In this document: positions 3,203 to 34,419 of the stretch, one piece after another
Position numbering within the stretch: the stretch's first letter is position 1
Layout of the letters: each line of letters begins with the position of its first letter
DNA from: an uncultured Parasporobacterium sp.
GTDB lineage: Bacteria; Bacillota; Clostridia; Lachnospirales; Lachnospiraceae
Direction: 5' to 3'
NCBI GenBank assembly: GCA_964579345.1
Contig: CAZOHB010000001.1
Span: 1 to 39,267 of the forward strand
Length of the DNA stretch: 39,267 bases
Made by a program: the position numbers and the translations under genes
The notes under the pieces: generated by a model
What the model was told of the DNA's origin: nothing
The model's database searches: none
What the model saw: only the letters and a program-made list of their open reading frames with translations

Positions 3203-3258
3203 TACTATATTCTCCATTACTGAAAACCTCTCCCTAATCAGATAACAGTAAAACAAAA

Positions 3259-3300: not shown

Positions 3301-3382
3301 TTTTGATTATTTTTAGAGTGTGTCTTAAGGTCATTCTTCGAAGAGAATGCTGTTCGCAAAGACCGTTTTCTGTTGTTCTTTC

Positions 3383-4312: not shown

Positions 4313-4551
4313 TTTTTCTCCTTGTAGAGACTAATCAGCAACGGTGGGATTGAAAACACAACTGTGTATTGTTGCTTGATTGAATACAATAGTAAATTCT
4401 CGTCCAGTAAGAATATCCGGTCAGATTAGCGAAAATATACGAGCCAGGCCGTTGGGTCTGGCCCGTTGGAACATTTTCTAGTTTCGAAGAATTATCTCTT
4501 TAAGATGAACGCATCCCCGATAAGCAGAGTAGTTTTAAGATAGCAAATACT

Positions 4552-5820: not shown

Positions 5821-6057
5821 AGTTTCCTCCTTTAAACTTGTATGTTTTCCGTCTCTTATCCTCTAATTTTATTGTAATTTTTCCTTGAAACTATTTGAAA
5901 TAAATTAATCTATCTCGGATATAACTATGAGTAATAACCACGGGGAACTAAATAATAACGAGCAGAGTTTTAATGAAATATAATAAAAATGACCTGCAGA
6001 CCGAGACAGAAAAAACAGGAGGTTCGATTGAAACATTGCCTGAAGGGAGGTTAGCTG

Positions 6058-8879
<2,822 letters not shown>

Positions 8880-9011
8880 ACGAGTTATAACTACGTTTCA
8901 TAACAAACGCTTTTTTATTTATTTCCCATGTTTTCCTACGGGTTTTAAAATATTTTTGAAGGTATTTGTGTGTAAATTTTTGCAATTTTATTAAAGAAGG
9001 AGGTACAGACT

Positions 9012-10247
9012 ATGGGAAAAATGGGTCGTTTTGTTGTTGAAACTCATGGCCATATTACAACATTGTATGATAGTGTTGGCGATAATCCTTCTCCCGAGGG
9101 GTGGACAGGTTTGCCAATGCAGCCAGGCAGCGGTGAGTGTGAGCATGTTGATGATTTAGCCATGACTTTATGGGATATGGAGGCTTATGGAGTTGATATG
9201 GTCCTCCTCTATCCAAGTATGATCGGTACAACGAATGAAGGACAGCTTGCACTTCAGGATAAGCATCCGGACAAATTCCGTTCCTGGTGTGCAGATCAGG
9301 AGACAAAACTGAAATGCCACAGAGAAAATATTCCATGGACAATTGATGCTGCTGCTGAAGAAATTGAAAAATGCCTTAAAACCGGCCTGTTCATAGGAAT
9401 CGGCGAATTTATCCCTCGTCATTGGGAGCCGGAGTATATTTACACTATTGAACAGCGGTTTGAAGAATACTGCATTTTCGGCGATCTGGCAAGAAAGTAT
9501 AAAGTCCCATTCTCTTATCATGAACTGCAGTGGGCAGATTTTCCGTTTGACCCATGGGTTCTTTTAAACTTTGTTGCTTCTAAGTATTGGGATGTCCCGA
9601 TTGTTGTTAATCATGGAGGACAATCCATTGGTGATTATACAATGGGAGATTGGAAAATTAGAAAGTCCCTGAATGTTGCAGGAAAGACGATGCCAAGACT
9701 TGAAAAAGACAACCTGTTTTTGGAGGTTGGAACTTGGCAGGCTGAGTGGATGAGAATGGCATGCGATGATCCAAACGTAGGCCCGACACAGTTGTTATGG
9801 GGTTCAGATTATGGTAATGTACCGCAGTACATTACGACAGATCCTCGCAGAGAAGCAAATGGAGTTGCAACAACATTCTCTACTTCCATGAAACGCTGGA
9901 GAGCAACCCCGGACTATCAGTCAGACTGGTGGGGATGGGAAACAACACAGATTGAAAAACTGAAACAATGGGTTGGTCAGGATGAAGTCAACCTGATTGT
10001 TGGCGGAAATGCTGCGAAGCTGTTTAAATTACCGGTTCCGTGCGAGAGAATGTTCCTTAGCGGTCGTCCTGATATCTATGGTATTTATTATGAAAGCTCA
10101 AAACCGTTTATTCCGATTGAGCAGGTAATCAATATCGACCAGAAGGCTGCAAATGCTGCTGTCATCGAGGAAAGAAAGAAGAATCCTCCGAAATTCCATC
10201 CAACAGACAATGTTCAGAAATTTAGAGAGCTTTACTACGGAGAATAA
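9012..10247 (+). CDS. Amidohydrolase-2 family protein (paralog of 4552..5820)
   Basis: The 411-aa ORF is preceded by the RBS GAAGGAGG. It has VETHGH, NHGG and WGSDYGNVPQ motifs. It shares a C-terminal KLPVP..RMF...RPDI(F/Y)G...PFIP.EQ tail with the other copy. Confidence 0.7.
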   Translation: MGKMGRFVVETHGHITTLYDSVGDNPSPEGWTGLPMQPGSGECEHVDDLAMTLWDMEAYGVDMVLLYPSMIGTTNEGQLALQDKHPDKFRSWCADQETKLKCHRENIPWTIDAAAEEIEKCLKTGLFIGIGEFIPRHWEPEYIYTIEQRFEEYCIFGDLARKYKVPFSYHELQWADFPFDPWVLLNFVASKYWDVPIVVNHGGQSIGDYTMGDWKIRKSLNVAGKTMPRLEKDNLFLEVGTWQAEWMRMACDDPNVGPTQLLWGSDYGNVPQYITTDPRREANGVATTFSTSMKRWRATPDYQSDWWGWETTQIEKLKQWVGQDEVNLIVGGNAAKLFKLPVPCERMFLSGRPDIYGIYYESSKPFIPIEQVINIDQKAANAAVIEERKKNPPKFHPTDNVQKFRELYYGE

Positions 10248-10287
10248 TTAATTAATCCGAATAGTTAATATTTAATCCTAACTGAAA

Positions 10288-10324
10288 AGAGGCTGTCGTG
10301 ATAATTCAAATCACGGCAGCCTCT
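10288..10324. terminator. Hairpin terminator between the convergent amidohydrolase and MATE genes; it also marks the composition boundary
   Basis: A 15-bp stem pairs AGAGGCTGTCGTGAT (10288-10302) with ATCACGGCAGCCTCT (10310-10324), including one G-T pair, around a 7-nt loop. On the minus strand the hairpin is followed by TTTTCAGT. On the plus strand a T-run occurs only about 15 nt later. Confidence 0.6.
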
Positions 10325-10362
10325 GATTATTGGTTCTGTTTTTTCTTAACCATTTCCCCCCC

Positions 10363-13839: not shown

Positions 13840-13876
13840 TAAAAAATAAACAGGCTGACCGTTGGTCCAGCCTGTG
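13840..13876 (-). terminator. Rho-independent terminator downstream of the rhodanese-TtcA-like gene
   Basis: A roughly 10-bp stem at 13852-13875 (CAGGCTGACC / GGTC(C)CAGCCTG, one bulge, 3-nt loop) is followed on the minus strand by TTTATTTTTTAA. Confidence 0.6.
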
Positions 13877-20429: not shown

Positions 20430-20849
20430 TTACAGAACTTTCCTGATTGCCTTCTGGAATTCTTCGACTGCTCTGCTGTCGCCCTCTTCGATGGCGTGCG
20501 TAATACAGTGGGTCATGTGCTCGTTGATGATCTCCTTGGAAAGATTTTTCAGCGCGCCGTTTACCGCTGCAAGCTGGATCAACACATCCGCGCAGTCCTC
20601 ATCATTTTCGATCATGACCTTCACATGCTGCAGATGTCCGATCGCGCGGGCGATCCGGTTCAGCTGTTTTTTCTTCTCTTCCGGGGAATGGTGATGGCCA
20701 TGCTCTTTGCTGTGGCCCTCATGTATTTCATGGGTGTGGGTGATCACGTTCCCGTTCTCATCGATATGCGTGTGTGTTACGCCGTGCTTTTCTTCTTTAT
20801 GGGTATGCACTGCGCGGTGTTGCCCTTCCGCATTTGTCTTCCGGCTCAT
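20430..20849 (-). CDS. CsoR/RcnR-family (DUF156) metal-sensing repressor with a His-rich N-terminal extension
   Basis: I chose the ATG at 20849 because GGAAAGGCGGAG lies upstream. The core LNRIARAIGHLQHVKVMIENDEDCADVLIQLAAV...EHMTHCI contains the x-C-H-C ligand pattern. The N-terminus is HRAVHTHKEEKHGVTHTHIDENGNVITHTHEIHEGHSKEHGHHH. Confidence 0.8.
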   Translation of the reverse strand: MSRKTNAEGQHRAVHTHKEEKHGVTHTHIDENGNVITHTHEIHEGHSKEHGHHHSPEEKKKQLNRIARAIGHLQHVKVMIENDEDCADVLIQLAAVNGALKNLSKEIINEHMTHCITHAIEEGDSRAVEEFQKAIRKVL

Positions 20850-20865
20850 ACTGCTCCGCCTTTCC

Positions 20866-20881
20866 AATCACTTCAGTGATT
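20866..20881. promoter_or_regulatory. Perfect 16-bp palindrome AATCACTTCAGTGATT between the csoR-like promoter and RBS; candidate operator
   Basis: I read the palindrome directly. It lies between the -10 element (20889-20894) and the RBS of the repressor gene. Confidence 0.4.
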
Positions 20882-20888
20882 AACCCGC

Positions 20889-20918
20889 ATTGTATCACAA
20901 TTCACAGAATATCGTAAA
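20889..20918 (-). promoter_or_regulatory. Candidate promoter with an extended -10 for the CsoR-family gene
   Basis: On the minus strand, TTTACG (20918-20913) is followed by an 18-nt spacer and then TGaTACAAT, which contains the -10 TACAAT at 20894-20889. Confidence 0.45.
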
Positions 20919-20999
20919 GGGGAGAGCGGTACCTTGACTGGACGGAATGTTCGTTTGTGACTGTGCCGGGCGTGGATGATGGAGGCACAAACGAACGAA

Positions 21000-21076
21000 C
21001 TGCCCGAGTGCGCGTTGGTAGCGCCAACAAGGGCAGCGTCTGTCCGGATATCGCTGGCGGCGGGGGAAATCCCACC
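21000..21076 (-). repeat. Conserved structured 3'-flanking element, copy A, immediately after the LRR-protein stop codon
   Basis: Two blocks are shared with copy B: GTGCGCGTTGGTAGCGCCA (21008-21026, identical in both copies) and GCTGGCGGCGGGGGAAATCCCACC (21053-21076, near-identical). The blocks are separated by exactly 26 nt in both copies. The first block is enclosed by the stem CTGCCC (21000-21005) / GGGCAG (21031-21036). Confidence 0.6.
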
Positions 21077-21078
21077 TT

Positions 21079-24000
21079 TTACTTCACCTTCACCTTAATC
21101 TTGAAGGTGACGCCGTTGATCTTGATCGTCACGGTCGTCTTGCCTTTTTTCGAGCCTTTGATTTTGACCTTGGTCGCGGTCGCCTTTGATGTCACTTTGG
21201 CGATCTTCTTGTTACCGGACTTGTAAACGTTTTTGACATCGGCTGCCTTGCCGGTGATTGCGACGGTCAGTGTTTTTCCCTTCTTTATATTATAAGTCGT
21301 CTTTGCCTTGAATTTTTTGCCGCCGACTTTGATCGTCGGGCTGGTCGTTACCTTGACTTTGCAGGTGAGTGGGGTTCCGCCCGGAAGCGTTGCCGTGATC
21401 GTCACCGTTCCCTTCTTCAGGGCGGTCACTTTTCCGGAAGCGGAAACTTTCGCAACCGCTTTGTTGGAAGACTTCCAGGACACCGCTTCTCCGTTCAGCA
21501 CCTTCAGCGTCAGTGTCTTGCCCGACTTCAAAGATGCGCTTGTCAGACTGAGGGTTGGAGCCGGAATGGTCACGGAATTATGGTCCTCGATCAGGACTTC
21601 ACCAAAGGGGTCCTCAAACCATTCCTTGCAGATCTCACAGACATAATATTCTTTGTGCCCGTCTTCCGTCTCGGTCACCGGTTTCGCTTCCACACAGATC
21701 ATCTCGTGAACATGCGGCGGGGCCGGCGGCTTCTCCGGCTGATATTCCTTAAACTCGATGTTCTCGTCCCCGTCGGCGAACCTCTGCGCTGCGCTTCCCT
21801 TGATTCCCCACATGACATACGGGAAACAGCGGACCGAGTATTCGCCCCATCCCGGCTCATAATCCGGATACCACTTGTCACGGTTAAACGCTTTTTCACC
21901 GATTGCGGTCACGCTCGGCGGGATGATCACGCTCTCCTCGAGCGTATTAACAAAGGCCATGTCCCCGATCTCCTGCACGGTATCTCCCAGGTCGATCTTG
22001 CTGAGCCAGGTACACCAGAAAGCTCCTTCCCCGATGGTCAAAAGACCGGACGGAAGTTTGATCTCTTCCAGTTTCGTGTTCAGGAACGCATAGTCGCCGA
22101 TGGAGAGAAGACTTCCCGGCAGTTCGACACTGACCGGCGGCCTGTCCGCGGGTGCACCGCTTCCATCGGAGAGATTTGCAAAGGCATAAGATCCGATCCC
22201 GGTGATTCCTTCCCGGATATCGATCTGCGTGATCTTTCCTTTAAACTTGCTCCAGGGAGCCGTGTCATCCGGAATCTCCCCTTCGCCATTAATTGTAAGA
22301 AGTCCCTTTTTCTCATTGAACGACCAGTGAATGTCTTCGATATCTCCTTCATTCCCGTCGATCCAGGGGAGCCCGTATTCCATTGCGTATATATACCCGG
22401 CGCTGTTCTTTCGGGCTATGATATAAAATCCCTCAACAGCCTCGTCCACTGTCGTTCCCGGATACCAGAAGCCAAATGCGTACGCTCCAATCTCACGGAC
22501 CGTCTTCGGAATTTCCACGAAAGTCATCTCGGTCGTATGGAAGGCTCTCTCCCCAATCGTTCTTACGCTTTCCGGGATCGTAATTGATTCCAGACAGGTA
22601 TCATAGAATGCGCAGCTTCCAATCGACACAAGATTTTCCGGTAATTCCAGGGTCTCGATTGAGGTTGCTGCAAACGCTCCGTCCGCAATCGTCTCCAACC
22701 GATCGCTTAAAATCAGCGTTCTCAGATTCTCGCAGCCATCAAAAGCTGACACCCCGACAGAAGTAACATCCAGATCAATCGATGCAAGACTCTCACAGCC
22801 TTCGAAGGTACTATCTTCGATAACGTCAACGCCGGACGGGATCCCGATACTTTTCAACGAAGTGCAATAAGCAAACGCTCTTTTGCCGATGGAGGTGATA
22901 TTGTCGTAATGTCCGAAAGGCCAGACAGAATACTCACCCTCGATCTTGACCTCGGTCAAAAAGGACAATCCGTCAAATGCCTCGTCCGGTATCGCTGTGA
23001 TCCTTTCATCAATATACAGTTCTTTGATCTCATTCTCAAAGTCTTTCCAGGGATATTCCTCACACGCAAAGGAGCCGTCTCCGTAAATGGTGAGCGCCAT
23101 TCCGTCTACCAGCCCTACACGGCCTTTAAGGTCCCAGTAATCCGATCCGGCAACACCCTGAATTCCCCTTTCAATCGTAATCTGGCTCGATGATTCAGCA
23201 TACCCCCTGATGGGATCTGTGTATGTCAGATACAGAATCTTTAACGGGTTCTTTTTTCCGGTGGATGCTTCCAGGCTGCTGTCCGGATTGTCCGGAAAAC
23301 TCGACGTAAAGCCGAGCGCCAGCGCCTCAATCGTCGTAAGACTTGCAGGAAGATAGATTTCCTTCAGTTTCGGGCAGGCGGAGAAAGCAAATTGTTCTAT
23401 TTTCAAAAGGCCGTCCGGAAGAATTGCCCACTCAAGATTCGGGCAGTCCATGAAGGCCTTTCTTCCAACAGCCGTAATGCCCGCTTTGATCACGACCGCT
23501 TTGATCTTGTCTTTAAAATAATTCCACGGCACATCGGTGGACTTCTCATAGCTTTCCATTGCTCCGTTTCCGGAGATGACCAATCTTCCCGTTCCGGGGT
23601 TAAAGTCATAACTGCAGCTTCCGGTTTCGCCGTGCAGGGAATGGTATTCGTATGAAATTCCGTTTTCAATTGCGTACGACTCTGCCACGCTTCCCTTTTC
23701 CACATACATCACAAGGCCGGGTACCTGATACAGCTTTCCATAATTATCCCGGCCCCATCCGATCGCCTGTTCTTCGATTGCCGTAACCGAAGCCGGAACC
23801 TCAATCGTTTTCAGATGACTGGTTCCACCGGCAAAAAAGGCACGGTAGCCGATCGTCTCGACCGAGGCTCCGATATGTACCTCTTCCAGATTCAGATACG
23901 TCTCTTCAAATGCCCTTTTCGAGATCGTTGTCATACCGTCTCCAATATAGATGCTTTTGACTTTGCCGGAATACGGATCCCATGGAGCGGTATTTGTCGC

Positions 24001-26049
24001 TCCATACTCCTCCATCGGACCGCTGCCTGCAATATGGAGTTCCTGCGAATTCTGATGATAGCGCCAGGAACAGTTGCCCAGGGTCTCTCCGACACAGATC
24101 TCATACGGAACGGAATTATTCCGTGCATAATTCAGGCCGGCAGAGTTTGCCATCACATAAAGTTTCGCGTCTTCTATCAGTTTTGTGGAATCTCCCGAAG
24201 TGACATAGCAGAGCGCCTGGCTGTCGATGGAAGTCACAGAATCCGGAATAAACAGCTCATTCACTTTGGTATTCAGGAAAGCTTCTCCCCCAATGGTCGT
24301 AAGACCCCGGCCCATCATAACGATTTCCAGAGACCGGCAGCCCTTGAATACCTGATACCCGATTGTTGTCAGCTGATCGGAATAGCTCACTTCCGAAAGC
24401 GCGGTACAGTTTTCGAACATGTTCATCGGCATTGTGGTCACATTCGGACCAAGCTGAACGCGCTCCAGATCTTTGCACTCCGCAAACGCATAGCCTCCGA
24501 TCGAAATCGTCTTCGCTCCTTCTCCACTTCCGAGGCTGAGCGAGGTCATCCCGCTTCCCGAGAACGCTTCGACGCTGATCGTTTGAATGCCCTTTCCAAA
24601 GTTCACATCGGCAAGGGAGGTGCAGCCTTTAAACGCGGCAACACCGATTTCGGTCACCGAATCCGGAAAGGAGATCTCATCTAATGCCGTACAGCCTTCA
24701 AACGCGCGCAGGCCGACCGATTCAACGGCCATTCCGGATTTCAGAGCCTGACTGTTAAACGTTACGCTTCTGAGATGCTTCAGATTCCGAAAGGCTTCCT
24801 CCCCGATGGACTGAAGTTTCCAATCATTAAACTCTACTGTTTCCAGATCTTTGAGCAGAGCGACGCCCTTTGACACGGTGTTAACTCCTTCTCCAAGCCA
24901 TCCCCTGCGTCCTCCGCCGATCACGAGATGGCGAACCTCGTGCTCCGCAACAAAGTCGCTCCAATACGGATCGGATGCAGCCGGGGTGGAATTGGTTTCG
25001 GAATTCCCCGCGCTTTGGATCCAGACGGTCTTCGTCGCCGGGTCGTAGATCCAGTCATTGTTATCGTAATTGGTAAAGAATTGTTTGTTATATAAGACGT
25101 CAAGGCCATTCGCCTTTCCGTATGCATCCGCTGCAGATCCTTCTTCTGTAAGAATGATCGGTGAGACACCCGACTTATTGCTGATCTCTCCGGATGCAGA
25201 AACGTCATATCCAAACGCCTTCTCACTGATGCTTGTAATCGTGGAAGGAATGTAGATACCGGCGTATTCGTACCCGCTTTTATGACCGGCAAAGGCGTAT
25301 TTTCCGATCTGCGCTTTCGTGTTTGCCCCGAAGGTGATCGCTTTTGCGTTGCTTTGAAGGAAGGCTCCTTCTCCGATCTTTTTTACGAAGGAAGTAATCA
25401 GGATCTCTTCGATGGAAGCATTCTTAAATGCGTAGTCTCCGATTTCCGCGCAATTCAGCCGCAGCTGCTTGATCGGACCAAATCCGCCGAATGCTTCTGC
25501 CCCGATTTTCGATGCGTTCAGGATCTGCTCTCTTGAAGTAACCGACAGAATGGAGTCGAAAAAAGCCCTTTCTCCGATCTCTGTCGCATTGCTCAGGTTG
25601 ATGCTCTTCAACTTTGTAAACCGGAACGCTTCTTTGCCGATTCTCATATTACCCATCAGCTGCACCGTCACCGGATCAGAATCCGATGACTCCCGTGCAA
25701 GACCGTAGAAGGCACCGTCTCCGATATTGACGGTATCATAAATATAAATGGATTTGATCTGCCTGCGGAACCAGATCCAGGGGACATCACTGTCATGCGT
25801 CTCCCCGTTCTGATCTGTCCAATACCTGGTTTTATAATGCTGATAATCCGGCATATAGGAAGTGGTGTTCTCTGAAGCTTTTCTGATCGTCAGCTTACCG
25901 GTCGCCTCATCAAACGTCCAGCTGAGGGTTCCTGTCGTCCCGGAGGTCGGATGCATCTCCGCCTTCGCAGGCCACACAACAAAAAGCAGCGCGAGCAAAG
26001 CCGCCGCAAACACGACTATGGAATACCGAAACACCTTCTGCTTAGTCAT
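21079..26049 (-). CDS. Secreted BspA-type leucine-rich-repeat (LRR_5-like) giant surface protein with a C-terminal Cys-motif and two Ig-like (Big_2-type) domains
   Basis: I chose the ATG at 26049 because AAAGGAGG lies upstream. The signal peptide is MTKQKVFRYSIVVFAAALLALLFVVWPAKA. Many IG..AF... LRR units are interspersed with about six W.F(D/N)...G.L.I.G.G...PW modules. The C-terminus has LSLTSASLKSGKTLTLKVLNGEAVSWKSSNKAVAKVSASGKVTALKKGTVTITA (Big_2-like) and ends FKIKVKVK. Confidence 0.85.
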   Translation of the reverse strand: MTKQKVFRYSIVVFAAALLALLFVVWPAKAEMHPTSGTTGTLSWTFDEATGKLTIRKASENTTSYMPDYQHYKTRYWTDQNGETHDSDVPWIWFRRQIKSIYIYDTVNIGDGAFYGLARESSDSDPVTVQLMGNMRIGKEAFRFTKLKSINLSNATEIGERAFFDSILSVTSREQILNASKIGAEAFGGFGPIKQLRLNCAEIGDYAFKNASIEEILITSFVKKIGEGAFLQSNAKAITFGANTKAQIGKYAFAGHKSGYEYAGIYIPSTITSISEKAFGYDVSASGEISNKSGVSPIILTEEGSAADAYGKANGLDVLYNKQFFTNYDNNDWIYDPATKTVWIQSAGNSETNSTPAASDPYWSDFVAEHEVRHLVIGGGRRGWLGEGVNTVSKGVALLKDLETVEFNDWKLQSIGEEAFRNLKHLRSVTFNSQALKSGMAVESVGLRAFEGCTALDEISFPDSVTEIGVAAFKGCTSLADVNFGKGIQTISVEAFSGSGMTSLSLGSGEGAKTISIGGYAFAECKDLERVQLGPNVTTMPMNMFENCTALSEVSYSDQLTTIGYQVFKGCRSLEIVMMGRGLTTIGGEAFLNTKVNELFIPDSVTSIDSQALCYVTSGDSTKLIEDAKLYVMANSAGLNYARNNSVPYEICVGETLGNCSWRYHQNSQELHIAGSGPMEEYGATNTAPWDPYSGKVKSIYIGDGMTTISKRAFEETYLNLEEVHIGASVETIGYRAFFAGGTSHLKTIEVPASVTAIEEQAIGWGRDNYGKLYQVPGLVMYVEKGSVAESYAIENGISYEYHSLHGETGSCSYDFNPGTGRLVISGNGAMESYEKSTDVPWNYFKDKIKAVVIKAGITAVGRKAFMDCPNLEWAILPDGLLKIEQFAFSACPKLKEIYLPASLTTIEALALGFTSSFPDNPDSSLEASTGKKNPLKILYLTYTDPIRGYAESSSQITIERGIQGVAGSDYWDLKGRVGLVDGMALTIYGDGSFACEEYPWKDFENEIKELYIDERITAIPDEAFDGLSFLTEVKIEGEYSVWPFGHYDNITSIGKRAFAYCTSLKSIGIPSGVDVIEDSTFEGCESLASIDLDVTSVGVSAFDGCENLRTLILSDRLETIADGAFAATSIETLELPENLVSIGSCAFYDTCLESITIPESVRTIGERAFHTTEMTFVEIPKTVREIGAYAFGFWYPGTTVDEAVEGFYIIARKNSAGYIYAMEYGLPWIDGNEGDIEDIHWSFNEKKGLLTINGEGEIPDDTAPWSKFKGKITQIDIREGITGIGSYAFANLSDGSGAPADRPPVSVELPGSLLSIGDYAFLNTKLEEIKLPSGLLTIGEGAFWCTWLSKIDLGDTVQEIGDMAFVNTLEESVIIPPSVTAIGEKAFNRDKWYPDYEPGWGEYSVRCFPYVMWGIKGSAAQRFADGDENIEFKEYQPEKPPAPPHVHEMICVEAKPVTETEDGHKEYYVCEICKEWFEDPFGEVLIEDHNSVTIPAPTLSLTSASLKSGKTLTLKVLNGEAVSWKSSNKAVAKVSASGKVTALKKGTVTITATLPGGTPLTCKVKVTTSPTIKVGGKKFKAKTTYNIKKGKTLTVAITGKAADVKNVYKSGNKKIAKVTSKATATKVKIKGSKKGKTTVTIKINGVTFKIKVKVK

Positions 26050-26086
26050 AGCATCCTCCTTTCGAATCGAGGGGAACAAACAAACT

Positions 26087-26269
26087 GCCTTACGTGAAAC
26101 AGCTGACTTTCAAACTGCTCGCAACGGCTCAACAAAGCCTCCGCTAACAGCTTCTAATGCGCTCAGATCGTCTAGCTTCGCGCATAAGAATCTGTAGCGC
26201 GGAGTCTTGATTCGCCTAAGAACGCTCGCCCAGGTTAGGTTTGAAAGTTCAGCTGTTTTCACGTAAGGC
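26087..26269. repeat. 183-nt imperfect palindrome (MITE/ERIC-like, long RNA stem-loop or inverton candidate) in the leader of the LRR gene
   Basis: The arm GCCTTACGTGAAACAGCTGACTTTCAAAC (26087-26115) pairs with 26239-26269 at 29 of 29 bases, with two 1-nt bulges. Inner helices are CTCCGC (26139-26144) with GCGGAG (26199-26204), and TTCTAATGCGC (26152-26162) with GCGCATAAGAA (26180-26190) at 10 of 11 positions. Confidence 0.7.
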
Positions 26270-26288
26270 TCTCTGAATTGTTCAATAA

Positions 26289-26408
26289 GGCGGGATTCCC
26301 CTTCCCTTCCGCCGCCTGCGCCAGCGGTTGATTGGTCCCGTGCGCGTTGGTAGCGCCAGCGGGGCCAATCAGAGCTGGGACATAGCTGGCGGCGGGGGGA
26401 ATCCCACC
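26289..26408 (-). repeat. Conserved structured 3'-flanking element, copy B, embedded in a 120-nt imperfect palindrome directly after the 2,593-aa gene stop codon
   Basis: The outer helices are GGGATTCCCC (26292-26301) with GGGGAATCCC (26396-26405), and CCGCCGCC (26309-26316) with GGCGGCGG (26388-26395). The middle helix is GATTGGTCCC (26330-26339) with GGGGCCAATC (26361-26370). The apex is GCGC-GTTGGTA-GCGC, inside the conserved block at 26340-26358. Confidence 0.65.
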
Positions 26409-26410
26409 TT

Positions 26411-29400
26411 TTATTTAACTTTCACTTTGATCTTGAAGGCAAATCCATTGACCTTGACGGTCACAGTCGCGGAGCCTTTCTTCAGCCCCTTGATCTTGAT
26501 CTTCGTCGCCGTCTTCTTCGAGATCACTTTCGCGATCTTCTTCTTACTCGTCGAGTAAACGTTATTTACACCCGGAGCTTTACCCGTGATCGTAATATTG
26601 AGCGTCTTGCCCTTCTTGACGGTGTACGTCGTCTTCTTCTTGAAGGCCTTCTTATTGATCTTGATCGTCGGATTCGACGAAACCGTGATCTTGCAGGTGA
26701 CCTTCTTTCCGTCGGCAAGCATCGCTGTAATCGTTGTCGAGCCTTTCTTCAGAGCTGTCACTTTTCCGGTCTTGGAAACTGTAGCGATTCCCGTCTTCGA
26801 GGATTTCCAAAGGGCCGGAATTCCGTTTGTTACTTTCAGTGTCAGCGTCTTGCCGGCCTTCAGCGAAGCTTTCTTCTTGCTGATCACAGGATCTCCGAAG
26901 AACGTGATGGTACTGTCGTGGTTCGTGATCTTCTCGGTTCCGAGTCCGTCATAGAACCACTCGCCGCAATCCTCGCAGATGTAGTACGGAATGTTGCCGG
27001 TCTCACCTTTTACAGCGTCCTTTCCAGGAACTGCTGTCAGGTTATGACCCGGTTCCGTAACCAGTTCCTCTTTCGTAATCGGCGTCGTTCCGGTTTCATC
27101 CGCGAAGAGATGACCGCAGGTCACACACTTGTAATGCTCTTTCATACCGTTCGCTCCGCACTTCACTGCAGCGGATTCCGCAACGAAGATCACGTCATGG
27201 CCGGTTGCAATCCAGAGATCGTCACGAACCACGTCCTCACCGTTCATTGCCGCCTCGATCTTCTTATCTAAGGAAGAATAACCGCAGACCTTACAAACAT
27301 CGTATGCCGGGCATCCGTCCGTGTCGCAGGTTGGGTGCACTTCCTTGTGATGTGTATAGGAGTGTCCCTTTGCAGGGATTTCCTTGAAGGTCGTGTAACC
27401 GCACTTCTTACAAGTATCGTACGCCTTATATCCCGACTCGATACAGGTCGCGTCTTTTCCCTCGAAGTGTTCCATATCGTGGCTTGCGGCTGCTGCCTTA
27501 AAGGTGTGCTCATGATCCACCGCTCCGCAGGAACAGCTCATGTAATAGGTCGCTCCCTTGCTGCAGTCGCCGGATACATAACAGTCGACCGACTGGGTCT
27601 GCTGATTGAAGTTATGGTTCGGAACAAGGTGGCTGTACTTCAGTACATCGTTATTATAATTGTAGTCTTCCAGGATGCGGTCTACCTCGTCCTCAGTGAG
27701 CTTAAGTTTCTGCACGGTTTCCGCATCATTCTCTGTTACATAAACGGTATAGTCATGCTTTTTACCGGAATCATCAAAGTCTGCCAAATTCTTCAGCGGC
27801 GTACCGCAGTTATTGAAATCGAGCTCTCCGTTCATATAGTAGACTTTTCCATCGAGATTGTAGAAGCCGTAGCCGCAGTTCTCAAAGGTGATCTTTCCGG
27901 TTCCTTTCAGGTAGATATCCTTATTATCGCCAGCCTGTACGGACTGTACGAACGCATGGTTACCTTTCAGCGTCAGGTTACCGTCGCCCTTAAAGGTAAT
28001 GTTTCCCTTGCCGCGGATAATGTTTCCAAGAAGGAAATTGCTTTCTCCGCCAAGCTTCTCAATATAGTTGTCTCCGATCAGCTCGATCGTCAGATCCTTC
28101 TTGGAGTAGATGACCGACTGTGACCGGACGTGTGCATACAGGAATTTCTCATATTCCACATCGATACCCATATCCGTGATACTGTAATTCTTCAGAGTCA
28201 GGGTCTTTGACGCTGCGTCATAATGGAAGCCGTCCCGCTCGAGATCGCCCGGATCCGATTTCGTAAGCGGAGCTCTTCCGACATAGACACCGTAATCATC
28301 GCCTTCCGGTTTCGTCCGGACCGGCTTCGTGTAGAAGTATTCGCCAATACCCTGCTTGTAATAAAGGACATATTCCGTATCCGGATCCAGACCCGTGAAT
28401 GCGACTTTGGAAGTCGTCCAGTGGTCACCATCCAGGGAGACGCAAAGGTCGCCTGCCTCCGGGAAGTCCGGATAGATCTCTGTCTCCGAGGTCTTGACGA
28501 CAATGTCATTGACATCCACCGTCTTCACGACGATCGAATCGCCGTCCTTCAGATCCGCCGTATATCTTCCGGCCCAGCTCGAAGCTGCTGCCGCAAAGTC
28601 CGGATCGCCGGTCTTCTCCACGCCTGTGAAGAATGTGCCGTCCACTTCCGGAATATCAATGCTTGCGTAATCCTTATACCGGATCGCCTCAATGTCTTTC
28701 TCATAAGCAACGCTGCCGTCCGGCTTCAGCGTCTTCACATGGACATCGATCGGATAGCCGTTGTCCAGCTGCGGCGCTTCGCCCTGCGTTGCGAAAATGG
28801 TTTTCTGCCTGTTTTCATTCACCCGCATATCGACGATGCCGTCGCCATTGCCGTCGACCGTAATATACAGCGGAATCTTCAGCGGTTCGGACGTCGCCGC
28901 GGTCGCAAACAGACTGTTCTCCACCTCGTCATAATCCACATACGCCGTGATCGCTTCCATCTGATCCAGATCCGGCTCGAGACGGATACTGCCGCCTTCC
29001 GTCTCCAGAAGCTCATCCAGATATACCGTCTTTCCTTTGACCAGGTTGAAATCCTTGACCCGGTATTTCGGAAGCGGCGGGATCGCTCTGCCGTCCAGGA
29101 CGGTTAAAGCTCCCGGCACGTTGAAGATACCGTAATCACTGCCGGCACCCCAGGTTCCATGAATCTCTGTCCGCGGATCGATTTCTCCGTTGACATAAAC
29201 TTTCATGTCTGCCTCGTCCGCAAACCCCACTTCGACATTATCGCCGTTCGGGTTCAGGTCGATGATGACTTTCGGTCCATCGATGGTTCCGCGCATAAAG
29301 GACTTCATGGTGTCCGTCGGGTTCTCCGGATCTACATGATAGCCATATGCCTTGAAGGTATACTCTGCGAAGGAGGTCCAGGAGAATCCTTTCTGGAACA

Positions 29401-32400
29401 GGAACATTCTGTCAGCGCGGTCCGCGTTGGTGCCCGTGTAGAACTGCTCCATCCATTCATCCACGCTGTCGCCTTCGGTTACCTCGGTCGGGAAGTCCAT
29501 CTTGACCGTGTCGATCACCGACGGTCCGTCGCCGATCGACCTCGTAAAGGTATAGTAGTATCTGCAGGTGTCGCCGACCTCGTATTCGCCCGTCGCCGGA
29601 TTTTCGACATAGTCCAGACGGCCGTAGCCGAGATCGTTCGTTATGATCCTCAGACCGTCCTCTGCAGTAGTCACTTCCATTGTGAACGGATGGACATTGT
29701 CATAGCACCAGGGCTCCATCTCTTTGAATTTCAGGATCGGGTCGTTCTTCTCGATCACAACGTTGATCGTATATGCTTTATAGAAGTCCGCGACGGCGTT
29801 ATCGTCAAGCCGTTCGCCGGCGCCGTCGGTCCAGTAAACTTCCTTGACGTGATAATCCGCATCGTCCGGAATCTCAACGTCTGTCCGGAAGTGCGCATCG
29901 ATCTCCGGCGGATTGATATTGGTGATCTCAACGTCATCCACATAATCGATGACTTCGACCTGTATCTTCGCTGTCTTTCCGTCCGGTCCGGTATAGGAGA
30001 GCGTCGCAACGCCTGCATTTCCTCCGAACGCAAGGCATCCGTTCGCATCGATATAGGCCACATCGGAATCCGTTGATTTCGCACTGTCAAAGTACAGACC
30101 GAGCGTATAGTTCAGCGGATATATGGTAAAGAGCTTGATATCGCCGCTCTGTACCTTTCCGCTCTTGAGGTCTTCGATGTCGAAGGTATAGCTGTCTTTT
30201 CTGGAAATAACACCTTCTGCCTCGACCTCAAACCGGATATCCGTCGTCGAATAATCAAAGTATCTCTTCGGAACTTCCTCCAGATTGGTCTGGTACTTCA
30301 CGCGTACGGTGTACTCTCCAGGCTTGATTGAAGCGTATCCCTGATCCGGTTTCAGATATTTCTCGTCGTAGAAGTCCTTCGGGAACTGCGCGGTCGGAAT
30401 CGGATCGCCTGCCTTCAGTTCCAGATTTCGGAATTCTTTGTATCTGTAATAGTGTCCTTCATAACCGACACTGTACTGGACATTGGTAATGTACTCGTCT
30501 TCTTCCAGACCGGTCACATTATCCAGGGACAGGGTCGCGTTATTGAAGATCGAGATATAGTTACCGTTCTTTCCGTAATCAATTCCGATCTCTCCTCCGA
30601 GCGGCTGCTCGAACGAGCGCTCCGGAATCTGATAAACATGGGAGTAGAAGGTCTGCATCGCGTCATAGTAGTCGGTCCAGTTGACGTTGACCGCAACTGC
30701 TTCTACCATGATCTTCTTGCCTGCGAGTTCTTTCGGAATATAGCAGGTATCGGTTGAACCGTAATCCTGATTGTTATTCTGATTGGAAAGATCGTAAGCG
30801 GTCGTATCCCGCAGGTCTTTTTCATTGACCCACTGCAGAGAGTATGCGTGGATCAGCCTTGCGATCGCATCATTGTTCTTCGGCCAGTTGTTGGTATCCG
30901 GATCGATATTATTTCCGTTATAGCGGATCTTCGGAAGCCCGTTCTCATATTCGACGAGATTTCCGCTTTCATCCTTTTCCTGCAGGAGTGGATCGTCCGG
31001 TGCCAACGTATTCGCATACAGGAAACCATCCTTGCCCCTCATCCACCAGGACGGTTTGTGCTGATCCTTGTTCCGGTTCAATTCCGCCTGCATCGTTTCC
31101 CGGTTGAGACCTGCTGCCTTTAACGACTGATAATTTTGAGCGATATCCCAGACATTGGTCGTTCCGGCAAGGAGCGTCTCCTTCTTTCCATTATCATCAA
31201 CGATCCACCACTGATAATAGATGTCGTGGATCATGTTGGTCTCCCAGTCGACATTACCGGTCTTGGCATTAACAAAGTTGATCTTTGCTCTCTGTCCTGC
31301 CTTGAACGGAGCGTCCCACTGCAGCGGGGTATAATCATAAGTCTGTTTATTGTATTCTTCCGAATATTTATGCTCTTTCGATCCGTAGCAGAGGAAGAGT
31401 ACGGAACTGGAGGCTTTCGCCGTATTCAGATTTGTCGTATATGCGTATGTATCCGTATTGGCATTATATGCGTTGGTCGAATACTGCTGGTTTCCGTTGT
31501 AATCAAATCCGAGACGCTCTTCCACATCCAGGGTGATCCGGTACATTTCTCCCTGACGGAACTTAAATGTCGGATCCTGCTGCTGGATCTTGGCCTCTAA
31601 GTCAATCAGGCGGATCATGGTCTTAAGCCCCTTACGTGCCTGATCTCCGTAGACCGCGACAGCGATCGGATCGTCATCCCCGATCTTTCCGTCTTTCCGC
31701 AGGTTCAGACGGGTCAGAGGATCCACCTTGTATACTTTGTACTCAAACCATTTCATGTTTGACACATAGTTATAATCCTGGAACAGAACATCGTAATTCT
31801 TATCAAAGACTTTCATAAGATTCTTCATGCTGATGTTCTCGACCGTTCGCGCGTCTACATAAGTCTTCCCTCCGAAGGTGGACGTCATCGTATTCAGTGT
31901 CGAGTTGAAACTGTTCGTGACCTTCGAAGGATCATTCTGCTTGTAATCACCGATTGCGCCGGATACAAGCGTTCCGAAGATCAATAAGTCATTGATCCGC
32001 AGCGGTTTAATCGGATCGCCATATGCGTCCACCGGTTCCTGATAGTACCAGGTCGGTGAAGTCGCTAAAGACTCTCCGTCCGGATCCAGGTTCTTGAACG
32101 TCGGCTTGATCGTGTAGCCGCTCGTGCTCTCGTCGTCGACCGGATAATAGAAGAGACGTTCTGTCGTGCTATAAGCGCCGCGGACGTTTTCCTCATCATC
32201 CTTAAACACCGTTGATATTGCATACTCATCTCCGCCATTTAACTGTGTCTTCAGGCGGAAGCTGTTTGTAGTATTGGTCCTGGCTGTGTTCGGATAGACT
32301 CTCAGTCCCTGTTTGAAACGGAGTTCCATATCGCTGCAGAACAGACGGTAGTGGTAGATGTCTCCGTCTCCACCGCTTTTATCATCCAGAAGGACCAACG

Positions 32401-34192
32401 CTCCGTTTCCGAACGTGTCGATGATCTGGATCCGGCCGTCGCGGATGAAATCCTCACTGAAGGAGGTAATTCCTAAGTTCATGGAGCCGCTGGTTCCGAT
32501 AAAGCTGGTGAAATGCTCCGTCTCGCTCGCGCTCTTGATTCCGACGTACTTCGCGGCATAATGGTTCTTAAATGTTCCGCCGCGGACCTGGACATTCGCC
32601 GTATCGATCGGAGTGGTTCCGTTGGTCTCATACTTCATCTCCTTGACACCCATGGATTCACTCTCTTCGATCGTAACCATTTCCTGATGCCGGACTCCGC
32701 TTTCATCCTGGTTGATCTGCTGTACCCGGTAACTATTACCGGCAGCTTCCACGATATTAAAGATATTTGCTCCATCCCTGCCTTCAAAAGTTCCGCCGAA
32801 AATATAAGCACGACCCCCGGAATACTGACCGGTCGCCGGATCATAGGTAGAAGCCGGGCCTCTTACTACTTCCACGACCGCATTTCTGGTATTATTGGAA
32901 GCACCATAGCCCTGAAAATCTCCACCGTAAGAGACGAAGGTTCCTAAGCTTCCGACCCGGACACAGGTTCCGAAGTTGATCTGCGTAATGCGGGAGTTCT
33001 GATCCACACCGATCATGCCCGCAATACCTTCCACGAAGTTAAACGCCGTATTTACAATGGATTGAATTGAACTCTGATTGACGGTTGCATCCACGATATC
33101 CTTGTTGGCCTTGGCAATCGCTGAATTCTTATCCGTCTTTGCAGAACCGTTGTCGTTCGCCTTCTGCTCTCCGTTGGTACTGTTATTCTTAGCCAGCGCA
33201 GGGATGTTTCCGTCAGCGTCCGGCTTCGGATGATCGATGCCGTCCTGTTTCTCCCCGATCGTCTGCATATCCTTCTTTCCGTCCGGATTCGTGGTCTTAG
33301 GGTCCGCCTTTTCTGCTTTTTTTATTCCCGGAGAAAGAGCTTCCGTATCTTCACTGATCTTCTTAAATTTTTCCACGACATCATCTTTGGCCGCAACAGC
33401 TGCGTCGATACCCGTCGCGTAAGAAGCAACAGATACACCGAGCTCTACGGCCTGACCGATTACGTTCTTTAATTTTGACCAGGAAAAATTGCTCTTAAAA
33501 TGGACCTTGCTGCGTCCGGCCTGGAAGTGTCCGCCGTAGATTACAAGGTTGCCGTCCTCGACATGAAAGAGATCAAAACTGGAAAAGTGCTCGACATCAT
33601 ACTTATAAGGATTCGGGCAGTAGCCATGGATGTAGATCCTTCCCGTTCCTCCGTCCGTATACTTCGCACTGGTGTCAAGAATATAGAACGTTGCTTCGTT
33701 TGTGATCTCGAAGGCTGTCGCCATATGGTGCTCCAGATCGTCCCTCGGACGAGGGGACTGCTCAGTCAAGCCCTTTGACCAGAAACGGGCATTGGAATCG
33801 ACCTGAAATTCAACAGTATGTCCGTTCAGATCAAGGACTTTCGTTTTTTGGATGACTTTCGTTGTCATGCACTCATGTTTCCATCGGTCATGCATATCCT
33901 CGGTCAGACTGATATATGTATCTTCCTCGTCTGTGCTTTCTAATAGTTCGATAAACTCATCATAGTCTTCCGGATGCTTCCATATTACGCTGCCATCCGA
34001 CGGATTCGAATATTCCAGCGTCCTGGCCATGGCCTGGCCTCGGGTATCCGTTCCGCCGCCTAGGACGATTGGAATATTGATCGAATCATCATACTCTCCG
34101 GCTGCCTGGGTAGCTGCCGGAACAGCAGGAAGCATGGTCACCAGCATAAAGACTGCCATCAATATGCTAAAGACTTTCTTCGCGTATTTCAT
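26411..34192 (-). CDS. Giant secreted protein (2,593 aa) of unrecognised family; beta-helix-like segments, Cys-motif repeats and two C-terminal Ig-like domains
   Basis: The RBS AAAGGAGAGGAG precedes the ATG at 34192. The signal peptide is MKYAKKVFSILMAVFMLVTMLPAVPAATQA. Four GGxF motifs occur (YGGHFQAG, YGGDFQGYG, FGGTFEGRDG, RGGTFKNHY). A low-complexity K/D/N-rich linker is present. A beta-helix-like run is NITFKGDGNLTLKGNHAFVQ...KGTGKITFENCG. Five H...C...G...Y.C..CG repeats follow, and the C-terminal 212 aa are homologous to the end of the LRR protein. Confidence 0.85.
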   Translation of the reverse strand: MKYAKKVFSILMAVFMLVTMLPAVPAATQAAGEYDDSINIPIVLGGGTDTRGQAMARTLEYSNPSDGSVIWKHPEDYDEFIELLESTDEEDTYISLTEDMHDRWKHECMTTKVIQKTKVLDLNGHTVEFQVDSNARFWSKGLTEQSPRPRDDLEHHMATAFEITNEATFYILDTSAKYTDGGTGRIYIHGYCPNPYKYDVEHFSSFDLFHVEDGNLVIYGGHFQAGRSKVHFKSNFSWSKLKNVIGQAVELGVSVASYATGIDAAVAAKDDVVEKFKKISEDTEALSPGIKKAEKADPKTTNPDGKKDMQTIGEKQDGIDHPKPDADGNIPALAKNNSTNGEQKANDNGSAKTDKNSAIAKANKDIVDATVNQSSIQSIVNTAFNFVEGIAGMIGVDQNSRITQINFGTCVRVGSLGTFVSYGGDFQGYGASNNTRNAVVEVVRGPASTYDPATGQYSGGRAYIFGGTFEGRDGANIFNIVEAAGNSYRVQQINQDESGVRHQEMVTIEESESMGVKEMKYETNGTTPIDTANVQVRGGTFKNHYAAKYVGIKSASETEHFTSFIGTSGSMNLGITSFSEDFIRDGRIQIIDTFGNGALVLLDDKSGGDGDIYHYRLFCSDMELRFKQGLRVYPNTARTNTTNSFRLKTQLNGGDEYAISTVFKDDEENVRGAYSTTERLFYYPVDDESTSGYTIKPTFKNLDPDGESLATSPTWYYQEPVDAYGDPIKPLRINDLLIFGTLVSGAIGDYKQNDPSKVTNSFNSTLNTMTSTFGGKTYVDARTVENISMKNLMKVFDKNYDVLFQDYNYVSNMKWFEYKVYKVDPLTRLNLRKDGKIGDDDPIAVAVYGDQARKGLKTMIRLIDLEAKIQQQDPTFKFRQGEMYRITLDVEERLGFDYNGNQQYSTNAYNANTDTYAYTTNLNTAKASSSVLFLCYGSKEHKYSEEYNKQTYDYTPLQWDAPFKAGQRAKINFVNAKTGNVDWETNMIHDIYYQWWIVDDNGKKETLLAGTTNVWDIAQNYQSLKAAGLNRETMQAELNRNKDQHKPSWWMRGKDGFLYANTLAPDDPLLQEKDESGNLVEYENGLPKIRYNGNNIDPDTNNWPKNNDAIARLIHAYSLQWVNEKDLRDTTAYDLSNQNNNQDYGSTDTCYIPKELAGKKIMVEAVAVNVNWTDYYDAMQTFYSHVYQIPERSFEQPLGGEIGIDYGKNGNYISIFNNATLSLDNVTGLEEDEYITNVQYSVGYEGHYYRYKEFRNLELKAGDPIPTAQFPKDFYDEKYLKPDQGYASIKPGEYTVRVKYQTNLEEVPKRYFDYSTTDIRFEVEAEGVISRKDSYTFDIEDLKSGKVQSGDIKLFTIYPLNYTLGLYFDSAKSTDSDVAYIDANGCLAFGGNAGVATLSYTGPDGKTAKIQVEVIDYVDDVEITNINPPEIDAHFRTDVEIPDDADYHVKEVYWTDGAGERLDDNAVADFYKAYTINVVIEKNDPILKFKEMEPWCYDNVHPFTMEVTTAEDGLRIITNDLGYGRLDYVENPATGEYEVGDTCRYYYTFTRSIGDGPSVIDTVKMDFPTEVTEGDSVDEWMEQFYTGTNADRADRMFLFQKGFSWTSFAEYTFKAYGYHVDPENPTDTMKSFMRGTIDGPKVIIDLNPNGDNVEVGFADEADMKVYVNGEIDPRTEIHGTWGAGSDYGIFNVPGALTVLDGRAIPPLPKYRVKDFNLVKGKTVYLDELLETEGGSIRLEPDLDQMEAITAYVDYDEVENSLFATAATSEPLKIPLYITVDGNGDGIVDMRVNENRQKTIFATQGEAPQLDNGYPIDVHVKTLKPDGSVAYEKDIEAIRYKDYASIDIPEVDGTFFTGVEKTGDPDFAAAASSWAGRYTADLKDGDSIVVKTVDVNDIVVKTSETEIYPDFPEAGDLCVSLDGDHWTTSKVAFTGLDPDTEYVLYYKQGIGEYFYTKPVRTKPEGDDYGVYVGRAPLTKSDPGDLERDGFHYDAASKTLTLKNYSITDMGIDVEYEKFLYAHVRSQSVIYSKKDLTIELIGDNYIEKLGGESNFLLGNIIRGKGNITFKGDGNLTLKGNHAFVQSVQAGDNKDIYLKGTGKITFENCGYGFYNLDGKVYYMNGELDFNNCGTPLKNLADFDDSGKKHDYTVYVTENDAETVQKLKLTEDEVDRILEDYNYNNDVLKYSHLVPNHNFNQQTQSVDCYVSGDCSKGATYYMSCSCGAVDHEHTFKAAAASHDMEHFEGKDATCIESGYKAYDTCKKCGYTTFKEIPAKGHSYTHHKEVHPTCDTDGCPAYDVCKVCGYSSLDKKIEAAMNGEDVVRDDLWIATGHDVIFVAESAAVKCGANGMKEHYKCVTCGHLFADETGTTPITKEELVTEPGHNLTAVPGKDAVKGETGNIPYYICEDCGEWFYDGLGTEKITNHDSTITFFGDPVISKKKASLKAGKTLTLKVTNGIPALWKSSKTGIATVSKTGKVTALKKGSTTITAMLADGKKVTCKITVSSNPTIKINKKAFKKKTTYTVKKGKTLNITITGKAPGVNNVYSTSKKKIAKVISKKTATKIKIKGLKKGSATVTVKVNGFAFKIKVKVK

Positions 34193-34354: not shown

Positions 34355-34382
34355 AAAAAAAGAGGGGGCCTTTTTCCCCCTC
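34355..34382 (-). terminator. Rho-independent terminator of the sensory operon
   Basis: The minus-strand RNA hairpin GAGGGGG-AAAAAGG-CCCCCTC (7-bp GC stem, 34362-34382) is followed by seven U residues (34355-34361). It lies 38 nt after the response-regulator stop codon. Confidence 0.8.
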
Positions 34383-34419
34383 ATAAATGATAGTTTTTAT
34401 TGTTTTTACTGAAAGATAT

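Follow-up and report, generated by a model that had tools for sequence, protein, structure and literature searches.

What is the element that recurs directly after the stop codons of two neighboring giant genes, and what could keep it there? In the window, that is the whole stretch of 39,267 nucleotides analyzed here, the sequence-only reading had pointed to two shared blocks behind each of these genes and had seen in them the signature of selection on structure. The open reading frame list places both genes, G1 and G2, on the minus strand, so that ‘after the stop codon’ means toward lower coordinates. Both are giant surface-protein genes, described as adhesin-like. Along the minus strand, a two-component system (7TM histidine kinase, HATPase and LuxR-type response regulator) lies immediately upstream of G1 and is followed by G1 itself, copy B of the element, a second long palindrome, G2, copy A of the element, an unrelated hairpin, and the csoR-type, uvrB and uvrA genes. 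The surroundings of the two copies are laid out as follows:

26411..34192, minus strand: giant gene G1, 2593 amino acids, with a Big_2 Ig-like domain and the end ...FKIKVKVK* (from the open reading frame list, Pfam and the gene called on a sister contig).
26086..26269, minus strand: second long imperfect palindrome, 3' of copy B and ahead of the ribosome-binding site of G2; predicted fold of -100.1 kcal/mol, z -5.4.
21079..26049, minus strand: giant gene G2, 1656 amino acids, with BspA-type LRR_5 repeats and Big_2 and the end ...FKIKVKVK* (from the open reading frame list, Pfam and the sister contig).
20949..20996, minus strand: second hairpin (GUUCGUUUGUG ... CACAAACGAAC), unrelated to the element, directly after copy A and competing with the U-rich tail of copy A.
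20430..20849, minus strand: gene for a CsoR-type metal-sensing repressor, 3' of copy A, with a promoter-like site at 20889-20918.

The start of G2, earlier placed at 26079, is corrected here to the called start at 26049, where an AAGGAGG ribosome-binding site and an ATG are found. The locus is known from one strain, in five contigs (the window, L012/L029, L030, L031 and L032) that are essentially identical where they overlap. The sister contig (ENA ERZ28654782, XIEF21-1_SAMN15829916_METAG-scaffold_1023) is near-identical to the window, from which it differs by three bases, all in uvrB; three more contigs, found through the exact CsoR protein, carry the same sequence bar one base 5 nt from a contig end. 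The host is an uncultured rumen-type Clostridia bacterium, and the named relatives of the window's proteins are from Ruminococcus, Lachnospiraceae, Oscillospiraceae and Clostridiales MAGs.

Upon close examination of the two gene ends, we found that each copy, read on the coding strand, runs TAA-AA, GGUGGGAUUYCCCCCGCCGCCAGC, 26 nt and UGGCGCUACCAACGCGCAC, and that both copies start 2 nt after the TAA of a minus-strand gene. The 19-mer GTGCGCGTTGGTAGCGCCA occupies 21008-21026 in copy A and 26340-26358 in copy B (19/19 identical), and the 24-mer, which we call block 1, occupies 21053-21076 and 26385-26408 (23/24 identical); the gap between them is 26 nt in both copies. The two-block recurrence that had been described is thereby borne out in identity and spacing alike. 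As direct repeats 5332 bp apart, the copies bracket G2 exactly. A third copy of the 19-mer is absent from the window even when 3 mismatches are allowed (chance expectation 0.01), and a stretch shared further 3', GGCAGTTYGTTYGTT in both copies, is not significant (P = 0.08). The parts of the element are:

26286..26410, minus strand: copy B, the full imperfect palindrome of ~125 nt, made up of an A-tract, 5' arm, variable helix, apical GCGC hairpin, 3' arm and UUAUUG.
26385..26408, minus strand: block 1 of copy B, GGTGGGATTCCCCCCGCCGCCAGC on the minus strand, in which a local 6-bp hairpin, P1, is possible (26391-26408).
26340..26358, minus strand: 19-mer of copy B, TGGCGCTACCAACGCGCAC on the minus strand, forming the predicted apical hairpin P3 (GCGC, UACCAAC loop, GCGC).
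26330..26370, minus strand: variable helix P2 of copy B, GAUUGGCCCC / GGGACCAAUC, with one bulged A, enclosing P3.
26289..26325, minus strand: 3' arm of copy B, which repeats block 1 imperfectly in inverted orientation, has a 7-nt bulge (AAGGGAA) and lacks a counterpart in copy A.
20999..21078, minus strand: copy A, with block 1 at 21053-21076, the 26-nt spacer, the 19-mer at 21008-21026, the P2 helix and then a U-rich run.
21031-21037 with 20999-21005, minus strand: P2 helix of copy A, CUGCCC/GGGCAG.

High identity between the copies starts exactly at the stop codon. TAAAA together with the 24-mer matches at 28/29 positions, whereas the last 30 coding nucleotides of G1 and G2 match at 22/30, the 26-nt spacer between the blocks at 11/26, and the 20 nt beyond the 19-mer at 5/20. 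Taken together, the blocks are identical at 47/48 positions, against 16/46 in the spacer and the next 20 nt, and the probability of such block identity is about 1e-20 if 16/46 is taken as the background, and still 6e-6 if the 73% of the neighboring coding DNA is taken instead. The genes around the blocks, to judge from their sequences, are old paralogues: the C-terminal modules of G1 and G2 (last 170 residues) are 60% identical in protein, while either of them is 62-71% identical over the same length to its counterparts in two other species, and within the last 30 codons the same codon is used at 9/22 identical residues. Because the two C-terminal modules are no closer to each other than to their orthologues, the blocks must be either constrained or younger than the genes. 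Likewise, the low identity of the spacer and of the flanking coding DNA (~72%), set against 28/29 and 19/19 in the blocks, argues that the blocks are not leftover homology from a duplication. Recent gene conversion of the gene ends was considered as well and is rejected by the protein identity matrix. Residual homology of duplicated gene 3' ends, a scenario named among those that would undo the claim, is thus rejected by the protein identity, the codon usage and the unrelated sequence found at this position in relatives. On these comparisons, the conservation of the blocks is non-neutral and far above chance.

The predicted folds agree with the pairing that had been proposed. In both copies the GCGC-7 nt-GCGC hairpin is enclosed by a helix, CTGCCC/GGGCAG in copy A and GATTGGTCCC/GGGGCCAATC, with one bulged base, in copy B. 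Block 1 of copy B also pairs with 26289-26325, as had been noted, and completes a hairpin of about 125 nt; this RNA folds at -80.1 kcal/mol versus -51.8 +/- 3.9 for shuffled sequences (z -7.2). Copy A lacks the partner arm and reaches a z of only -2.8, with just the inner hairpin, which is present in all of its predicted low-energy structures. The 3' arm of copy B extends far enough to complement the AAUAA around the stop codon. A ribosome terminating at the stop codon covers block 1 with its footprint, and in copy B this block doubles as one arm of the terminator-like hairpin. Block 1 (CGCCAGC) might instead pair with the 19-mer at its 5' edge (GYUGGCG); this alternative was set aside, as it comes out about 15-20 kcal/mol worse than the hairpin model.

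The consensus fold of both copies comprises three helices. P1, a 6-bp hairpin within block 1, and P3, a GCGC/GCGC stem with the 7-nt loop UACCAAC, are invariant between the copies. P2 is a 5-bp helix in the same alignment columns (G-U/A-U, C-G/U-A, U-A, G-C, C-G/G-C) and differs between copies A and B by two double and one single compensatory change; beyond these columns it is extended differently in each, to 7 bp in A and to 9 bp plus a bulge in B. In shuffles, helices of the size of P2 are common by chance in a single copy, and 3.2% of composition-preserving shuffles of the variable flanks yield a helix of 5 bp or more that both copies share in register (P about 0.03). Controls with slid alignments gave no double compensatory changes. 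In a column shuffle, 149/500 replicates reached the observed covariation score, a test that has no power with two sequences. The fold, moreover, is not particular to one strand: for copy B the values are -84.1 kcal/mol (plus strand) and -80.1 kcal/mol (minus strand), G-U pairs being about as numerous in one as in the other, and the plus-strand fold equals or surpasses that of the sense strand. A fold that is equally good on either strand gives no ground for placing the structure in the sense RNA. The shuffle frequency, the powerless two-row test and the strand symmetry together leave conservation of structure unproven and not assignable to the sense RNA; in these models, conservation of structure between copies A and B is suggestive. 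Of the selection on structure that the sequence-only reading had seen here, the in-register helix with its two double and one single change therefore stands, whereas a signature of such selection cannot be claimed.

What occupies this position in related genes? We read the 3' flanks of 11 genes that carry the same C-terminal module (one each from L020, L022, L023, L027 and L028, three from L024, two of them repeated in L025, and two from L026). In 9/11 flanks a short GC-rich hairpin and then a T-rich tail lie within about 40 nt of the stop codon; in L023 a convergent gene follows 2 nt away, and L028 has no clear terminator near the stop. The element is present in 0/11 flanks, and the link that had been suggested between it and genes with the FKIKVKVK module is thus not seen. 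L024/L025, at 50% identity to G2, and L026, at 40%, are the nearest relatives found; they keep the tandem arrangement of G1 and G2, and their sequence 3' of the stop is unrelated to the element. Relatives encoding small proteins also have hairpin-plus-T terminators. The spacer between G1 and G2 measures 361 nt here versus about 100 nt in relatives. The palindrome that it contains at 26086-26269 has no homology to the element, is absent from relatives and has no other copy in the window. A scan found no promoter-like site in this spacer on either strand, which suggests that G2 probably depends on read-through.

The position of the element is therefore that at which relatives carry terminators, and both copies present a stable GC-rich hairpin 3' of the stop on the coding strand, as intrinsic terminators do. 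A consensus scan that asks for a U-tract of at least 5 T in 8 found no minus-strand terminator at copy A or copy B. In line with this, the earlier statement that neither copy ends in a classical U-tract agrees with the scan, which rejects both; it needs qualification in that AAAA and UUAUUG flank the outer hairpin of copy B and UUCGUUCGUUUGUG follows the inner hairpin of copy A. The tails, UUAUUGAA in copy B and UUCGUUCGUUUG in copy A, are near misses and are comparable to some of the relatives' tails; ...GGCGGCCUC-UUUCCUC in L024, for instance, departs from the ideal as much as copy B's UUAUUG does. Canonical terminators are in use elsewhere in the window genome, at 13850-13875 and around 34360-34390, the latter after the response-regulator gene (GAGGGGG-AAAAAG-GCCCCCUC-UUUUUUU). 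This indicates that the unusual ends are specific to the two giant genes.

The reading that we prefer, at a little less than an even chance, is a lineage-specific 3' hairpin module that stands where relatives have terminators and would serve as a partial terminator and exonuclease barrier. The module would be a GC-rich stem-loop within the 3' UTR of G1 and of G2: in copy B a composite hairpin of ~50 bp between AAAA and UUAUUG, in copy A the inner hairpin and then the U-rich run. Each copy would stall or release RNA polymerase inefficiently and would block 3'-to-5' exonucleases, which would make copy B a leaky terminator or a processing or stabilizing hairpin, comparable to the REP hairpins that stabilize mRNA upstream of them in E. 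coli operons. Copy B could thereby set the ratio of G1 to G2, and copy A could close or shield the G2 message before the csoR-uvrBA genes, which are promoted separately. Such a module would have arisen in this lineage, with its blocks held near-identical and the stem between them free to vary as long as pairing is kept. What the sequences show is the anatomy, the non-neutral conservation, a position equivalent to that of the relatives' terminators and the lack of other copies in the searches; what we infer is an action at the RNA level, through termination or stabilization, and selection.

Several points count against the preferred reading: the consensus terminator scan rejects both copies, the plus strand folds at least as well as the sense strand, covariation has no statistical power with two sequences, and the locus comes from a single strain. 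The main weakness is that block 1 of copy A is near-perfect even though it has no pairing partner, and a plain hairpin role is insufficient to account for this; a block kept while unpaired points to some sequence-specific role. A bolder version, which we consider quite improbable, would make the blocks an RNA motif (the post-stop hairpin plus the apical GCGC-UACCAAC-GCGC loop) that a trans-acting factor of its own, or the ribosome as it terminates, would recognize. If true, translation termination in each giant gene would be linked to read-through, processing or stability of the transcript, which would amount to a private system of 3'-end control for very long mRNAs of surface proteins.

Further copies of the element were sought widely. 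A covariance model built from copies A and B and run over the window with filters off returned copies A and B and the reverse half of the copy B palindrome (26285-26373, plus strand, 22 bits), with no degenerate copy; over the related loci it gave no match. The collection scans used exact patterns. In one genome per species (185,579 species) the exact 19-mer had no real match: 11 Psychrobacter loci carry it within a coding region (…MVRVGSAIFGAR) and without the second block, and we take them as chance. The gapped two-block pattern gave 7 high-GC chance matches in JGI metagenomes, none like the element, and exact patterns gave zero matches to the element in viral, plasmid and phage collections. 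With the covariance models of Rfam 15, the window has 0 matches at the gathering score, and none overlaps the element at E <= 10; a weak match to CRISPR-DR17 (20860-20884, E 0.08) lies outside it. On the plus strand the 19-mer resembles a D-arm one base short, and a tRNA-like identity was therefore considered; ARAGORN found no tRNA or tmRNA and Rfam no tRNA match. In protein space, all six reading frames had zero matches among 5.8 billion called proteins, and the open frame found nothing real among 1.84 billion representatives, the lone match (P0179) being a PSSDWP repeat artefact. The literal sequence strings of the element had no match in the literature searched. The idea of a dispersed family thus gains no further copies in the window or in the collections searched, and with no significant covariation either, the stronger claim of a conserved RNA family is not borne out on the sequence-only reading's own terms.

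How do other explanations fare against the preferred 3' hairpin module? One alternative sees in the copies two members of a dispersed family of extragenic palindromic repeats (REP-, ERIC-, BOX- or MITE-like), with B full-length, A truncated or rearranged, and any RNA effect secondary. Copy B is an imperfect palindrome of ~125 nt with terminal arms of 24-37 nt, and its size, GC-richness and post-stop position are typical of such elements (ERIC, Correia and REP). The 361-nt spacer with its second, unrelated palindrome looks as if palindromic units had accumulated there, identical blocks around an unrelated spacer fit derivation from different family members, and about 32 kb of the organism's genome is visible, so that most copies could lie outside. 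We nevertheless regard a repeat family as unlikely: there are two copies in 39 kb and none degenerate by the covariance model; no real match came from the species genomes, the metagenomes, the viral, plasmid and phage collections or the proteins; copy B has no target-site duplication, and its arms run into the stop-codon A-tract; the window's open reading frames include no transposase or RAYT gene; and both copies sit at an identical offset from the stop codons of paralogous genes. A history without any selected function is decidedly unlikely in our estimate. It would take a recent copying of the post-stop segment, after which template-switch or indel events rewrote the spacer and built the copy B palindrome. 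Template switching during replication can create or perfect hairpin stems and introduce multi-base compensatory changes at once, without selection (PMC8794818), and the changes in P2 would then have arisen in single steps. The 3' arm of copy B, an inverted block 1 that reaches the AAUAA complement as in a local inverted duplication, speaks for such events, as do the equal stability of both strands and the weakness of the covariation evidence. They would, however, require a copied tract that starts exactly at the stop codon in both genes, and would have to leave two blocks 47/48 identical amid 26 + 20 nt of random-level identity, a spacer of exactly 26 nt and a rewritten helix in the same register; a flanking coding identity of ~72%, moreover, is too diverged to drive homologous gene conversion.

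That the sequence itself has been kept, with block 1 unpaired in copy A and the 7-nt apical loop invariant, is what a recognition site for a trans-acting factor would lead one to expect, whether at the RNA level (a processive antiterminator, an RNase III-type processing enzyme or another RNA-binding protein, by which the two giant genes would be regulated jointly) or at the DNA level (a regulator, or a site-specific recombinase that uses the two direct repeats). A long duplex like that of copy B would suit a double-strand-specific RNase. The direct repeats 5332 bp apart that bracket G2 and the LuxR-type two-component system immediately upstream of G1 also favor such a site. Yet the window holds no recombinase, integrase or reverse transcriptase, all contigs with the locus are collinear and none lacks G2 or is rearranged, no known RNA family matches even at E <= 10, and no candidate factor can be named; we hold this explanation to be improbable. 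A coding reading of the blocks is close to excluded. It would take them as a read-through extension (KVGFPPPPA...) or as a small plus-strand antisense gene (…VRVGSA…DIAGGGGNPTF…), and it can point to the sole difference in block 1 being synonymous in both frames (TTT/TTC, GGA/GGG). Spacers of equal length keep both frames in register. The in-frame extension of copy B, however, meets a TGA after 13 codons, between the blocks, and the inter-block peptide is unrelated in either frame; the plus-strand frame has no ATG upstream of the blocks, and its openness downstream is owed solely to a Lys-rich coding region on the opposite strand; and no frame has a homologue in the protein searches above, the one match among the representatives being the repeat artefact.

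If the preferred 3' hairpin module does control termination, processing or stability, it would show how surface-protein genes of 5-8 kb are tuned from their 3' ends and would exemplify the conservation of a specific sequence within a bacterial 3' UTR. For now, the element is a two-copy feature of a single strain, and its main value is as a worked example: conservation beyond that of synonymous sites and compensatory changes can be found together, yet two sequences cannot prove a structured RNA.

Comparison with known systems places the element more closely. Hairpins made by template switching (PMC8794818) share with it the long near-perfect inverted repeat, clustered differences that preserve pairing and equal stability on both strands, and the arm of copy B copies sequence that adjoins the stop codon. 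Template switching explains the origin of a stem, but not the identity of two unpaired or apical blocks 5.3 kb apart. Like integron attC sites, the element is an imperfect palindrome immediately 3' of an open reading frame, is conserved in its middle more in structure than in sequence, and recurs after consecutive genes of the same orientation. By contrast with attC, its ends carry no R''/R' core sites (RYYYAAC / GTTRRRY), conservation lies at the apex and in one arm, and the genes are 5-8 kb long and form a tandem pair that relatives conserve without the element; the attC reading was rejected on the missing GTTRRRY/RYYYAAC ends and the absence of an integrase domain from the window. The target end of a diversity-generating retroelement (VR plus IMH) was rejected also, there being no reverse transcriptase in the window and no template repeat. 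The coding differences between the G1 and G2 ends are of all kinds, as opposed to the adenine-specific differences of such retroelements.

Bacteria harbor several families of extragenic palindromes, among them REP/BIME and ERIC in enterobacteria, BOX and RUP in pneumococci and the Correia elements in Neisseria. With REP-, ERIC- and MITE-like units the element has in common an imperfect palindrome of ~125 nt, a place right behind a stop codon in transcribed intergenic DNA, and conserved ends around a variable interior. Those families, however, run to tens or hundreds of copies in each genome and recur across species, against two copies here and none in the collections searched, and the element comes without a target-site duplication or an associated transposase in the window and is conserved in one arm and the apex rather than at both termini. 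Terminal inverted repeats with a target duplication are accordingly not seen, as copy B has no direct repeat at its borders and copy A has no second arm. A hairpin placed between cistrons can, on the other hand, stabilize the mRNA upstream of it, as shown for the REP hairpin in the malE-malF spacer of E. coli.

The element resembles intrinsic terminators in being a GC-rich hairpin a few nucleotides after the stop, in copy B with AAAA upstream and UUAUUG downstream, and in occupying the position of the relatives' hairpin and T-rich terminators. It differs from them in that its hairpin has ten times the usual length, is multi-branched, has a weak U-tract and is rejected by the consensus scan, in that copy A has no outer hairpin, and in that its two blocks are conserved beyond what pairing needs. 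In its working, intrinsic terminators and REP-type 3' hairpins would be the closest analogues, and we file the element as a private example of a 3'-end extragenic hairpin, outside any named family.

A second long imperfect palindrome lies in the spacer between the giant genes G1 and G2, on the G2 side of copy B, the shared hairpin element that directly follows the G1 stop codon. It and the neighboring features considered here are:

26086-26269, minus strand, second long imperfect palindrome, between copy B and the G2 ribosome-binding site
21079-21600 (G2) and 26411-26932 (G1), C-termini of the giant proteins, a module of about 90 residues ending ...VNG.AFKIKVKVK
20430-20849, minus strand, CsoR-type metal-sensing repressor with a His-rich N-terminal extension
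1-10340, left part of the window, with genes for MFS transporters, a URO-D-like protein, a LysR regulator, a Cpn60/TCP-1 chaperonin and an amidohydrolase

The RNA fold of the palindrome has a predicted energy of -100 kcal/mol (z -5.4). Its outer arms measure some 29-31 nt, lie at approximately 26234-26262 and 26087-26115, and have CAGCTG cores. We found no promoter-like site within it. In relatives the palindrome is absent, and the G1-G2 spacer is just ~100 nt long. Candidate explanations are a segment that can invert, a structured leader and a further palindromic insertion.

Upon reading past the stop codons of G1 and G2, we noticed that both copies of the hairpin element encode KVGFPPPPA in frame (21050-21078 and 26382-26410, minus strand). 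A single synonymous difference (TTT/TTC) separates the copies in this frame and is the sole substitution in block 1, the conserved 24-mer after the stop codon; in copy B, the in-frame extension reaches a TGA at the 14th codon. The shared reading is probably a coincidence of the GC-rich block. On the plus strand, a frame common to both copies reads ...VRVGSA...DIAGGGGNPTF... (21008-21200 and 26340-26560) and continues open for ~50 codons further, which is explained by its position antisense to the Lys/Val/Thr-rich C-terminal module. This frame lacks both an ATG upstream of the blocks and any homologue, and is thus most likely an antisense artefact.

The 19-mer, the second conserved block of the element, also occurs exactly inside a conserved coding region of Psychrobacter genomes (L001-L011), where it encodes ...MVRVGSAIFGAR. 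We dismissed this match as coincidental and without relation to the element. Another contig of the same strain (ENA ERZ28019011 k141_249741, L031) begins within copy A. At its position 5 (window 21029), 5 nt from the contig end, the minus strand has C in place of T, within the internal loop that separates the apical hairpin P3 from its enclosing helix P2. This difference may reflect true variation or an error at the end of the assembled contig.

The His-rich extension of the CsoR-type repressor spans ~55 residues (HTHKEEKHGVTHTHIDENGNVITHTHEIHEGHSKEHGHHH). Farther left, GC content within the window jumps sharply at ~10300, from 0.38-0.44 on the left to 0.50-0.55 on the right. A bidirectional terminator hairpin (10287-10325) forms the junction at this step, and the near-identical sister contig ends at ~window 10339. 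The step may mark a genomic island, or the assembly may be chimeric at this point.

No Pfam family covers the last domain of the proteins with the ...VNG.AFKIKVKVK module. The module, possibly a domain for wall anchoring or sorting, sits at the very C-terminal end of many Big_2 proteins from rumen and gut Clostridia (P0001-P0019). These proteins vary in size from secreted ones of 170 aa up to giants, and in some cases three lie in tandem (locus L024).
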